64,000 nucleotides of DNA from Patescibacteria group bacterium (GTDB lineage: Bacteria > Patescibacteriota > UBA1384 > UBA12157 > JAENIV01). The DNA lies in contig JBEKTP010000004.1 in the NCBI GenBank assembly GCA_049515915.1, positions 12,709-76,708 on the forward strand, in the 5' to 3' direction. The first letter of the stretch is position 1. Every line of letters starts with the position of its first letter. A model generated the notes under the pieces. It worked only from the letters and a program-made list of their open reading frames with translations. It was not told the origin of the DNA and did not search any database. This document shows, one piece after another, positions 3,550 through 6,176 of this stretch. A program made the translations under genes and the position numbers.

Positions 3550-4576
3550 TTATATCATCTTTTTTAGTTTTTTTCTCAAGTAATATCCATTACAATGTTT
3601 TAAAAGTCCAAGATATGATGGTAAATTTTTTTTACTTCGTTTTTGCAACATTCTCTTCTTGGTCTTGGTTCGCAAAACTCGATAATGCGGCAAAATAACA
3701 TAGCCTAAAAAATCTATGCCTTGTTTTAATTTACGCACAATAATTTTTTGAGGATGCGGTCTTAACGCAAGACGGCAATCAAGAAAAAAAGAAATTCGGC
3801 CGACCAAAATCTCTAACTCAGTGCGGTTGCCGCTTAAAATTACAAAGTCATCGCAATAGCGAAGATAATATTTGATTTTTAAACGATGTTTAATAAACTG
3901 GTCAAGTTCGTTGAGATAGATATTGGCAAAAAGCTGTGAAGTTAAATTGCCAATCGGAAGCCCAGTTCCGTTGAGGTTTAACTCGCGGATTGGATTCGTC
4001 TCTCTCTCTCTCTCTCTCGAAAAGTCCCTGCTGAACATATGGTTTATTAAAGCTACCAATAATAACTTTCAATAGCCATTGTGTGTCAGGATCGGGGACT
4101 TTTCGAGCAACAATATCAAAAAGAGCTCGATGATTGACCGAGGCAAAGAACTTTTTAACATCGCATTTTAATACCCAGCACGGCTTGGTATAATTTTTGC
4201 TGACAATCCTCGTAAATTCTTCCAGCCGTTTTACCGCCTTATGCGTACCTTTTTTATTTCGACAAGAATAAGAACCGTCCACAAAACCAGGGTCAAAAAT
4301 CGGATATAATACCCGATAAATCGCGTGGTGAACAATCCTATCTTTAACACAAGCTTTGTGAATATGCCTCGATTTAGGGTCAGTGATGTAAAATGAGGTA
4401 TAATCGGAATGCCGATAAGTTTTACTTTTAAGTTCCAAGTGCAGGCCGAATAAATTATCTTCTAAATTACGCTCAAATTCTTGAACATCAATCTTGTGGC
4501 GTTTACCCTTCCTAAACTCCTTCCAAGACCAAAATAAGTTTTCTAAAGAAATAATTTTTAAAAAGAGGTTATCCAT
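3550..4576 (-). CDS. DGR reverse transcriptase, interrupted by a frameshift inside a (TC)10 dinucleotide repeat (two overlapping ORFs 3902..4576 and 3550..4059)
   Basis: N-terminal ORF: ...FYITDPKSRHIHKACVKDRIVHHAIYRVLYPIFDPGFVDGSYSCRNKKGTHKAVKRL... (RT motifs 1-2). C-terminal ORF: GLPIGNLTSQLFANIYLNELDQF...YLRYCDDFVIL (DGR-RT signature QGxxxSP-like LPIGNLTSQ and YxDD catalytic box). Both frames read ERERE across the (GA)n repeat at 3999..4018. Total ~340 aa, DGR/retron-size RT with no maturase or endonuclease domain. Confidence 0.9.
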
Positions 4577-4916
4577 GATTAATGATGTTCCAATTGTCCA
4601 AAAGGTTTACGACTTTTACCGTGAATTTTATCAGACTCTTCCAAGCATGCCAAAACAGGACCGTCATGTTTTAGGCGGCAAAATCCAGCAAGCCACACTT
4701 GATCTTTTAGAAGATTTAATCTCGGCCAGCCATCAAGGAAAACAAAATAAACTCGAATATTTATCGAAGGCGGCAACGAAACTGGATTTACTCAAGCTTC
4801 TTTTACGGCTGGCGGAAGATATAAAAGCCATATCTCCCAAAAGATATTTGGCGCTCTCGGAAATCTTGCAAGAAATCGGCAAGATGCTCGGCGGCTGGAT
4901 TAGAAGTCTCAACTAA
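4575..4916 (+). CDS. avd: DGR accessory variability determinant (Avd; four-helix-bundle / 23S-IVS protein family)
   Basis: Track ORF 4494..4916; likely start ATG 4575 (MINDVPIVQKVYDFYREFYQTLPSMPKQDRHVLGGKIQQATLDLLEDLISA...ILQEIGKMLGGWIRSLN). The pattern and C-terminal IGKMLGGWIRSLN closely parallel Bordetella phage bAvd (..VGRILGSWIARVN), quoted from memory rather than checked here. Start overlaps the RT start divergently. Confidence 0.75.
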   Translation: MINDVPIVQKVYDFYREFYQTLPSMPKQDRHVLGGKIQQATLDLLEDLISASHQGKQNKLEYLSKAATKLDLLKLLLRLAEDIKAISPKRYLALSEILQEIGKMLGGWIRSLN

Positions 4917-4956
4917 AAGCAAAAACTCCCGCCAATGACGGGAGAAATGAAGAAAG

Positions 4957-5083
4957 TTGCGGCGGAACGCCCACCGGTTGTTGCCATTCCAGACGTTGTC
5001 GGGGTGACCATTGTTGCCGTTGAGCCAACGTCCGTCCTCGTTGCGTTCGACGTTGAACACCTTGAGGTTGCCGTCGGAGTCCG
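4957..5083 (-). repeat. DGR template repeat (TR)
   Basis: 127-bp near-copy of 5506..5632. All ~23 mismatches fall where this copy has T on the + strand (A on the minus/transcribed strand). The corresponding pseudo-ORF is Asn-rich (NVERNEDGRWLNGNNGHPDNVWNGNNRWAFRRN), i.e. AAY codons. Confidence 0.9.
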
Positions 5084-5154
5084 TCAAGTGCAAAACGCCC
5101 TCCGAAGTCACTGCTCCTCGATTACTCTCAGAGCTGTATTTTATTTTGGGCCAT

Positions 5155-5355
5155 TTAACCCACTGGCGTTTTGCACCAAGTATCTTCATTTTTTAAGCAT
5201 TGCCGAATCGCTATATGCAAAGAAACTTTGCTTATAACAGGCCAATAGACCTCACTATCCCAAGCCGTAGCCGGGAATACTCCGGATTTGACAACGCCAG
5301 GATTCGGTAGCGGAAAGCCGTAACCGTCCGCATATTCACCTAATACCTTACCCAT
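5155..5355 (-). CDS. Hypothetical 66-aa protein between VR and TR (possible DGR accessory ORF)
   Basis: ORF with AAGGAA RBS 3 nt upstream of ATG; no recognisable family; ends just upstream of TR. Confidence 0.3.
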   Translation of the reverse strand: MGKVLGEYADGYGFPLPNPGVVKSGVFPATAWDSEVYWPVISKVSLHIAIRQCLKNEDTWCKTPVG

Positions 5356-5407
5356 TGTTCCTTATGAGTACTTATCTGTCAAGTCAATTTTAAAAAATTT
5401 TCGAAAA

Positions 5408-5452
5408 CCCGATTTTGAAGATACAAAATCGGGCCCCGCTCTCGCGGGGCCC
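5408..5452 (-). terminator. GC-rich hairpin (9-bp stem, 4-nt loop, 5431..5452) followed by a rho-independent terminator hairpin (5408..5433 plus T-tract), immediately downstream of the DGR target gene/VR
   Basis: +strand gggccccgc-tctc-gcggggccc and cccgatttt-gaagatac-aaaatcggg; on the minus strand the second stem is followed by TTTTCGAAAATTTTTT. Confidence 0.65.
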
Positions 5453-5501
5453 GGACAAGACCCAAGGATCCAAAAGAAACAAGGATCCAAGGTACAAAGA
5501 A

Positions 5502-6176
5502 CTACTTGCGGCGGAACGCCCACCGGTCGTCGCCATCCCAGACGCCGGCGGGGTGACCACGGTGGCCGTAGAGCCAACGACCGCCCTCGTCGCGCGCGAC
5601 GCTGAACACCCGGAGGCGGCCGCCGGAGACCGAGATAGGCTCCATACCCACCAGAATCCACTCGCCCATCGGTTGATCGGCGTACTGAAGACGCCACTGC
5701 GGCCCGACTTCCGCCGGACAGAGACCCAGCCCCATGGAGAGCGCTTTCTCGTAGATCTGGGCCCGGGTTGCGCCGTTGGGAAATCCCAACTCGGCGACCG
5801 AGACCACCACGATATCCACGTCCTCCGGCTTCGAAGCGACATTGATCCGCTTGAGAATGTCGTCGCCCCAGTCGCCGATGCGGTAACCCGCGTCAAGGAG
5901 AGCCTTCCGCAAGTCCTTGACGGACTTGTGCGTGCCCAGCTTGATGGTCGCGAACGGCCTGCGCTCCATGATGGGTTTGCGCAGTTGCTGCTCGGCAGCC
6001 AACTGGTCGAGGAGATCGTGGTGCCGCTTCTTGAACTCGGGGTGATCCATGGCATCCTGCAGATCGGCGGTATTCCGCCGTTCTCTGCCGATAGCCTCGC
6101 AGCGCCGACCGTAGTCCTTAACCGCGTCTTCTGAGACACCTTCCTGCGTCGCTTCGAGAGTAACTCGATCTTTCAT
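5502..6176 (-). CDS. DGR target (variable) protein, 224 aa, C-terminal C-type-lectin-like VR region
   Basis: C-terminus ...VFSVARDEGGRWLYGHRGHPAGVWDGDDRWAFRRK aligns with the TR-encoded NVERNEDGRWLNGNNGHPDNVWNGNNRWAFRRN, with Asn replaced by S/D/G/Y/H/R/A. No signal peptide. Locally GC-rich (>60%) against a ~40% background. Overlapping ORFs 5390..6139(-), 5415..6134(+) and 5362..5697(-) are GC-artefact frames. Confidence 0.85.
   Translation of the reverse strand: MKDRVTLEATQEGVSEDAVKDYGRRCEAIGRERRNTADLQDAMDHPEFKKRHHDLLDQLAAEQQLRKPIMERRPFATIKLGTHKSVKDLRKALLDAGYRIGDWGDDILKRINVASKPEDVDIVVVSVAELGFPNGATRAQIYEKALSMGLGLCPAEVGPQWRLQYADQPMGEWILVGMEPISVSGGRLRVFSVARDEGGRWLYGHRGHPAGVWDGDDRWAFRRK
5506..5632 (-). 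repeat. DGR variable repeat (VR), 3' end of target gene
   Basis: Aligned to TR: identical except at TR-adenine positions (T->C/G/A on + strand). Ends at the stop codon of ORF 5502..6176. The first ~21 nt (ttgcggcggaacgcccaccgg) are identical in both copies (IMH-like). Confidence 0.9.

Follow-up and report, generated by a model that had tools for sequence, protein, structure and literature searches.

The window, that is, the whole 64-kb stretch of Patescibacteria DNA analyzed here, harbors a diversity-generating retroelement (DGR), a cassette for targeted hypermutation, whose reverse transcriptase (RT) gene is read from the minus strand as two overlapping open reading frames (ORFs). The N-terminal ORF (3902..4576, minus strand, 224 aa) aligns with bRT up to a dinucleotide tract and then runs into an out-of-frame tail, and the C-terminal ORF (3550..4059, minus strand, 169 aa), free of internal stops, holds the GLPIGNLTSQ motif and the YCDD box as well as the C-terminal region. 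When the two halves are fused, the resulting RT matches Pfam RVT_1 (2.8e-18), and a profile of the fused RT and its homologues matches the solved Bordetella DGR RT 8ub7 (6e-59), its best solved relative; GLPIGNLTSQ, in the C-half ORF, conforms to the (I/L/V)GxxxSQ motif 4 of the DGR clade. On the plus strand lies an avd accessory gene of 113 aa (4575..4916; Pfam bAvd, 7.4e-23), followed by a template repeat (TR) of 127 nt with 33 adenines (4957..5083, minus strand) and by a target gene of 224 aa without Pfam match (5502..6176, minus strand), the 3′ end of which is a variable repeat (VR; 5506..5632, minus strand) whose mismatches to the TR all fall at TR adenines (22/22). Both the Avd and the adenine-only TR/VR pair at a target 3′ end that are expected of a DGR are present, and, judged by these features, the cassette itself is real. 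No second RT, avd, VR, or TR-like repeat was found in the 64-kb window.

From a transcriptional perspective, avd and the RT gene diverge from start codons that share 2 nt (CATG, window 4574-4577), so that each promoter must sit within the 5′ coding region of the other gene. The divergent layout is also found in the homologous loci L095, L097, and L098, and the overlap of the avd and RT start codons in L097 (3001-3002) and L115 (784-785). Upstream of the RT start, inside avd, lies a promoter-like TTGGCA-17-TAAAAT with TG (4625..4653, minus strand). A second promoter-like site, TTGACA-17-AACAAT (5354..5382, minus strand), is located between the target gene and the TR and is a possible candidate for the TR-RNA promoter, and a terminator-like hairpin with a T-run (4926..4944, minus strand) stands directly 3′ of the TR, all three being consensus matches only. 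The presence of a promoter-like site before the TR and of a terminator-like hairpin after it suggests a discrete TR RNA, transcribed separately from the RT.

A few further features of the cassette may be mentioned. A strong terminator-like hairpin, again a consensus match only, is found 3′ of the target gene (window 5430-5453, minus strand). A minus-strand ORF over the TR (4803-5189) amounts to a TR-encoded, Asn-rich copy of the target C-terminus, and a plus-strand ORF of 100 aa across the TR (4935-5237), called by gene callers in every sample, is probably spurious. The target genes are GC-rich, with 63% GC here and 54–64% in L095 (1188-2135), L097 (1384-2040), and L098 (1207-2142), in loci of 38–42% GC with RT genes of 30–36% GC, and this high GC content spans the entire gene, beyond the VR.

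The tract at which the RT frame breaks is a perfect (TC)10 at window 3999-4018, that is, a (GA)10 microsatellite on the minus strand, inside the RT gene and precisely where the ORFs 4576..3902 and 4059..3550 overlap. It is the sole dinucleotide run of more than five units in the 64 kb, and none of 100 dinucleotide-preserving shuffles matched it, even with two mismatches allowed. The tract encodes (ER)n, here ERERE, in every frame; past it, the N-terminal ORF ends in a tail of 32 aa that is a wrong-frame reading of GLPIGNLTSQLFANIYL, and the true coding part of the C-half ORF begins at the tract, from 3998 downwards. When the gene was rebuilt in silico, tracts of 8, 11, and 14 units gave one RT ORF of 340, 342, and 344 aa, respectively, tracts of 7, 10, and 13 units led to a stop after 222, 224, and 226 aa, and tracts of 6, 9, and 12 units to a stop after 196, 198, and 200 aa. 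A full-length RT accordingly needs 3k+2 units, and the RT frame, shifted at the (GA)10 of the window, is restored by the gain of one unit or the loss of two. As in a contingency locus, the repeat is thus intragenic and its unit is not a multiple of three. An earlier note on this DNA had described two overlapping RT ORFs joined at a perfect 10-unit TC repeat, both reading ERERE across it, and had calculated that 11 or 8 units would fuse them; all of this was borne out, the fused products being of 342 and 340 aa, and the reading of ERERE extends to all frames. Four contigs, from no fewer than three JGI samples, have the identical 224-aa N-half ORF among their gene calls.

At the protein level, the tract region aligns as an insertion of ~20 residues that is missing from bRT 8ub7 and that lies directly before its GIPIGSLTSQ motif. 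When the fused RT was modelled with AlphaFold2 (mean pLDDT 85.9, pTM 0.81), residues 181-197, which include ERERE, came out as the longest segment with a pLDDT below 50. Such a location in a lineage-specific disordered loop before motif 4 implies that in-frame changes of length are tolerated; as far as the model can tell, they should be harmless, which fits with the variable (RE)n lengths of intact homologues.

To document the tract in the same organism across many JGI and ENA samples, contigs were gathered by exact-protein look-up of the N-half ORF and of Avd, and the tract was read off the sequence of 16 distinct contigs, one from each of 16 samples. The GA run is perfect in all 16 and counts 10 (four contigs), 12 (four), 13 (three), 15 (one), 16 (two), or 18 units (two), each assembly giving the majority allele of its sample and the samples being possibly non-independent. 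Among the samples in which the contig occurs are JGI 3300038426, 3300038415, 3300039412, 3300038424, 3300017998, 3300038418, 3300017938, 3300038417, 3300018004, 3300018005, 3300038423, 3300038416, 3300037993, and 3300041418, and ENA ERZ4200889. Independently of these contigs, the 90% protein cluster of the N-half contains products of 200, 202, 224, 226, and 228 aa, which correspond to 12, 15, 10, 13, and 16 units. A scan of metagenome_contigs with a flank-plus-gap DNA pattern returned one further contig only (L004, 12 units), and the same scan of viral_contigs gave no match. When loci of ~5.3 kb were compared with the window, the single gap was the tract and, except in two loci, the remaining mismatches were wholly in the VR; the number of repeats is thus polymorphic among near-identical genomes from 16 samples. 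Since these loci are otherwise nearly all identical, the population appears near-clonal save for two hypervariable sites, the VR and the RT tract.

Regarding the VR, eight haplotypes were found among the samples, with 27 of the 33 TR-adenine sites variable, no variable non-adenine site, and no non-adenine mismatch to the TR in any haplotype, which is the population diversity expected of mutagenic retrohoming. Because the eight haplotypes differ solely at TR adenines, the DGR of this lineage is, on this sequence record, one that was recently active, and in all alleles of the lineage the two RT halves are undamaged. Single VR haplotypes occur with several tract lengths (H1 with 10, 12, and 16 units; H5 with 13, 15, and 18; H4 with 12 and 13), so that the tract would change at least as fast as the VR, with the reservation that the two sites lie 1.5 kb apart in short-read consensus without phasing and that some pairings of VR and length may be chimeric. 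Some VRs look mosaic (L008, L009, and L014 compared with the window and L007): H8 combines the 5′ part of H1 with the 3′ part of H5, and H6 and H7 have their 5′ part in common. These mosaic haplotypes could reflect partial retrohoming, recombinants, or consensus chimeras of mixed populations.

An in-frame allele of this lineage was searched for in several ways. None of the 16 directly read contigs has 3k+2 units, gene calls revealed no in-frame RT among the 23 longest Avd-indexed contigs of the lineage, and a search of 5.8 billion protein clusters returned no full-length RT above 68% identity. Exact look-up of the fused proteins predicted for 8, 11, 14, 17, and 20 units was also negative, a result of little weight since the known 204-aa product of the 18-unit contig L009 was missed too. 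Since no in-frame allele was found, the ON (in-frame) state of this lineage is one that we infer. A split RT assembled from two polypeptides was also considered and rejected, the 12-, 15-, and 18-unit alleles having no called C-half ORF with a start in the right frame.

From a comparative perspective, the tract is not peculiar to this lineage. Among 68 close full-length homologues (53–68% identity), 30 have (RE)n in frame shortly before GxPxGNLTSQ, and in a scan of GTDB genomes, the representatives with RERERE among the matches listed (the best 80) all have a perfect GA run of 20–21 nt (4/4: L015, L016, L018, and L068); these best 80 matches are all contiguous RTs and give no unbiased ON:OFF census. 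A genome of the present species was not found in that scan. When the N-half alone was used as query, 79 proteins without motif 4 were recovered, many of them from contigs of considerable length (807 kb at most); 54 of the 79 stop at or shortly after the (ER)n run, their tails being the two wrong-frame readings of GLPIGNLTSQLFANIYL, either ‘..DWQFNF..FCQYLS’ or ‘..RLAI*’. Together with the cluster of this lineage, this makes 58 truncated N-halves representing 54 lineages at 90% identity, with a clear out-of-frame tail in 45 of them (about 40 outside this lineage), the other 13 ending inside the tract. The latter suggest that contigs often break there, as expected from within-sample length heterogeneity. 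One protein search being biased toward full-length and the other toward short proteins, both states can be reported as common, without a ratio.

The N-halves that end within the (ER)n run are P0125, P0133, P0136, P0177, P0190, and eight others. In another homologue, P0160, the RT reads through (RE)n in frame and is frameshifted a few codons later, after GIPIGN, by a lesion that the tract did not cause.

The presence of the tract is phylogenetically clustered (31 Fitch changes versus ~69 in shuffles), tract-bearing RTs are found down to 52–65% identity in the N-terminal block, and the tract is uninterrupted in all nine lineages examined at the DNA level. A perfect GA tract is hence conserved at the same site in many related RTs, in frame or out of frame.

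Three out-of-frame (OFF) homologous loci were examined at the DNA level. A perfect tract of 21 nt (L095/L096), 17 nt (L097), or 29 nt (L098/L099) is found in each, and a one-unit change restores an RT of 311, 328, or 361 aa, respectively. All three are complete DGRs with the same layout of target and VR, TR, divergent avd, and RT; their TR/VR mismatches fall at adenines in 14/14, 19/20, and 18/21 cases, and the C-half that follows the frameshift is stop-free in every OFF locus examined. The 807-kb contig that carries the OFF DGR of L097 also encodes two more 23S_rRNA_IVP/Avd-like genes within 3 kb (1-165 and 4866-5240).

Both states were encountered within a single sister lineage, in which an ON allele, P0001, with (AG)9 and a 329-aa in-frame RT, was recovered from five samples, and an OFF allele, P0131, with (AG)10 and a 198-aa truncated product, from one. 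The two loci are 99.8% identical elsewhere. ON and OFF alleles are distributed over five samples versus one in the sister lineage, as compared with no in-frame allele among 16–23 contigs here.

On this basis, our preferred reading, to which we give a probability of about 0.68, is that (GA)n is a slipped-strand phase-variation switch in the RT gene of a chromosomal Patescibacteria DGR. Since the length of the tract varies from sample to sample, toggles the reading frame, and recurs in dozens of relatives, it would most likely act as a heritable, stochastic switch. The gain or loss of GA units at replication would bring the catalytic C-terminal half of the RT in frame or take it out again. Where the tract is in frame, cells would make the RT and, together with Avd and the TR RNA, rewrite the VR of the target at adenine-templated positions, when cells whose tract has slipped out of frame would cease mutagenesis and inherit a fixed VR. 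If such an OFF state freezes the VR and if clones endowed with a good VR expand, these ‘locked’ clones would dominate the sampled populations, majority alleles would be expected to be OFF, and one VR haplotype would be expected across several tract lengths. In this scheme, we infer the replication slippage itself, its reversibility, the adaptive lock-in, and the occurrence of VR changes during in-frame episodes. With regard to the earlier note, which had proposed that the tract could be a phase switch and that its OFF state could lock a given VR, the switch is supported by the length polymorphism, by the tracts of homologues, by sister-lineage alleles one unit apart, and by a cassette that is evidently still diversifying its target, and the locking fits the data in that one VR haplotype is seen with several OFF lengths. 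Two of the checks that it had called for turned out positive: the same organism displays 10, 12, 13, 15, 16, and 18 units over 16 samples, and the repeat is there in homologous RTs.

The tract could instead be a tolerated mutational hazard rather than an adaptive device. According to this alternative, which we hold to be unlikely, GA repeats expanded by chance in a tolerant loop, and the OFF alleles are potentially revertible pseudogenes of a dispensable RT. The position of the tract in a variable, disordered loop, the many relatives that do without it, the ~31 gains or losses on the tree, and the very common occurrence of OFF alleles are all in line with such a scenario. However, a mere hazard fits poorly with a tract that is uninterrupted in all nine lineages examined at the DNA level and persists among RTs that are 52–65% identical, with C-halves that are stop-free in every OFF locus examined, and with OFF loci that keep complete cassettes and TR/VR differences at adenines (14/14, 19/20, and 18/21), to which the recent VR turnover in this lineage can be added. 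The decaying RT that the earlier note had envisioned is likewise contradicted by adenine-only VR turnover in otherwise identical genomes and by RT halves that are intact in all alleles. From a mechanistic point of view, a hazard would still be a reversible ON/OFF switch, and it is the adaptive claim alone that differs.

Another alternative, which we find rather improbable, is that the out-of-frame arrangement is itself the selected working state, a 2-nt slip of the RNA polymerase or of the ribosome on (GA)n yielding a little full-length RT. The tract would then keep the dose of RT very low, in-frame alleles would overproduce RT, overmutate, and be purged, and a −2 or +2 slip would correct the respective OFF class, the length of the DNA setting which slip is needed. 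In favor of this proposal, no in-frame allele is seen in 16–23 contigs despite VR turnover, and the two OFF frame classes are about equal (12 versus 11 of 23 contigs). The chance of observing zero ON alleles is ~(2/3)^16 = 0.0015 if the samples are independent and frame-neutral, 0.005 when the 13 distinct combinations of VR and length are counted, and 0.09 when the six lengths are counted. The sequence further indicates that AGA/GAG codons would re-pair perfectly after a 2-nt shift, and a modest hairpin lies 1 nt past the tract (−19.7 kcal/mol, z = −2.06), which is a weak signal. Against it, relatives show in-frame alleles and both OFF frames, hence no constant frame relation, most samples of the sister lineage are in frame (5/6), and the tract offers neither a homopolymer run nor an X XXY YYZ slippery heptamer. 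In programmed recoding, the relation between the two frames is normally a single, constant one, and we know of no established case of slippage on a dinucleotide tract in bacterial transcription or translation. Classical programmed frameshifting was rejected as a candidate on the ground that the frame relation between the two ORFs is not conserved. If slippage of this sort were nonetheless at work, it would represent a recoding signal of a novel, dinucleotide type, setting the dose of a mutator enzyme.

It is very unlikely, in our view, that the RT is permanently off here and that another DGR RT, encoded elsewhere in the genome, drives VR changes in trans. This view draws on the fact that the 64 kb seen are only a part of the genome and that some relatives have extra Avd-like genes nearby (L097), but the window holds no second RT, avd, or TR-like repeat, the conserved tract and the intact RT halves would be left unexplained, and it is established from DGR biochemistry that each RT works with the Avd and the TR RNA of its own element. 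Finally, it is scarcely credible that the real gene is in frame and that its low-complexity run was misread in sequencing or assembly; this, the assembly error feared in the earlier note, is ruled out because different samples and assemblers reproduce the result. PCR stutter does affect dinucleotide runs, and 13 homologous N-halves end exactly in the tract; even so, the 10-unit allele recurs in four samples and most other lengths in several samples each, the OFF tracts of homologues were recovered by differing pipelines (ENA MEGAHIT versus Logan; ENA versus JGI), relatives have in-frame tracts of comparable length that assembled without trouble, and no error process would shun solely the 3k+2 lengths.

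Provided that (GA)n is indeed a phase-variation switch, its significance would lie first in the control of DGR mutagenesis. How retrohoming is regulated or restrained is stated as unknown in a preprint on Bacteroides DGRs. The restraint of mutagenesis so as to keep a useful variant is an open question, to which a switch borne by the RT gene itself would offer a concrete answer, with ON cells diversifying in bursts and their OFF descendants fixing the outcome. A hypermutable locus would then govern a second hypermutation system, and the biology of contingency loci would reach from host-adapted pathogens to uncultured Patescibacteria. From a practical perspective, many CPR DGRs will be missed or wrongly scored by surveys that demand an unbroken RT ORF, and it would be possible to reassess, in the light of the frame of the tract, which DGRs such surveys have called ‘active’ or ‘inactive’. 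In the DGR surveys and literature searched, we found no case of SSR control of a DGR RT, nor, in the literature searched, any case of SSR phase variation in Patescibacteria.

Among known systems, programmed slippage or frameshifting, as in dnaX, the transposases of IS elements, and prfB, has in common with the present locus that overlapping ORFs fuse into a functional enzyme at a repetitive junction; it differs in that the frame relation is here unfixed, that there is no homopolymer or heptamer, and that the length of the DNA itself varies. Canonical DGRs are exemplified by the bRT/Avd/TR system of the Bordetella phage BPP-1, by those of Legionella, Treponema, and Bacteroides, and by the CPR/DPANN DGRs of genomic surveys. 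Shared with them are an RT with (I/L)GxxxSQ, an Avd, a TR/VR pair mismatched at adenines only, and a target gene that carries the VR at its 3′ end, whereas the RT gene is here broken by a hypermutable GA tract and avd is divergent, with overlapping start codons.

The remaining comparison is with SSR phase variation, known from the CT/TC repeats of the outer-membrane genes sabA, hopZ, and oipA of Helicobacter pylori, from the poly-G tracts of Campylobacter, from the tetranucleotide repeats of Haemophilus, and from the phase-variable mod genes (‘phasevarions’). The CT/TC genes of H. pylori are the closest of these contingency loci: as here, the repeat is perfect and intragenic, with a unit that is not a multiple of three, near-identical genomes differ in the number of units, related lineages keep the tract, and ON and OFF alleles are one unit apart, as seen here in the sister lineage. 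The known loci differ in switching surface antigens or methyltransferases, when the gene affected here encodes the enzyme at work in a second, targeted system of hypermutation, and in bearing their tracts near the 5′ end, when the GA run lies here in the middle of the gene, in a loop that separates motif 4 from the N-terminal region. Likewise, their hosts are host-adapted pathogens, in contrast to the free-living or episymbiotic environmental Patescibacteria considered here.
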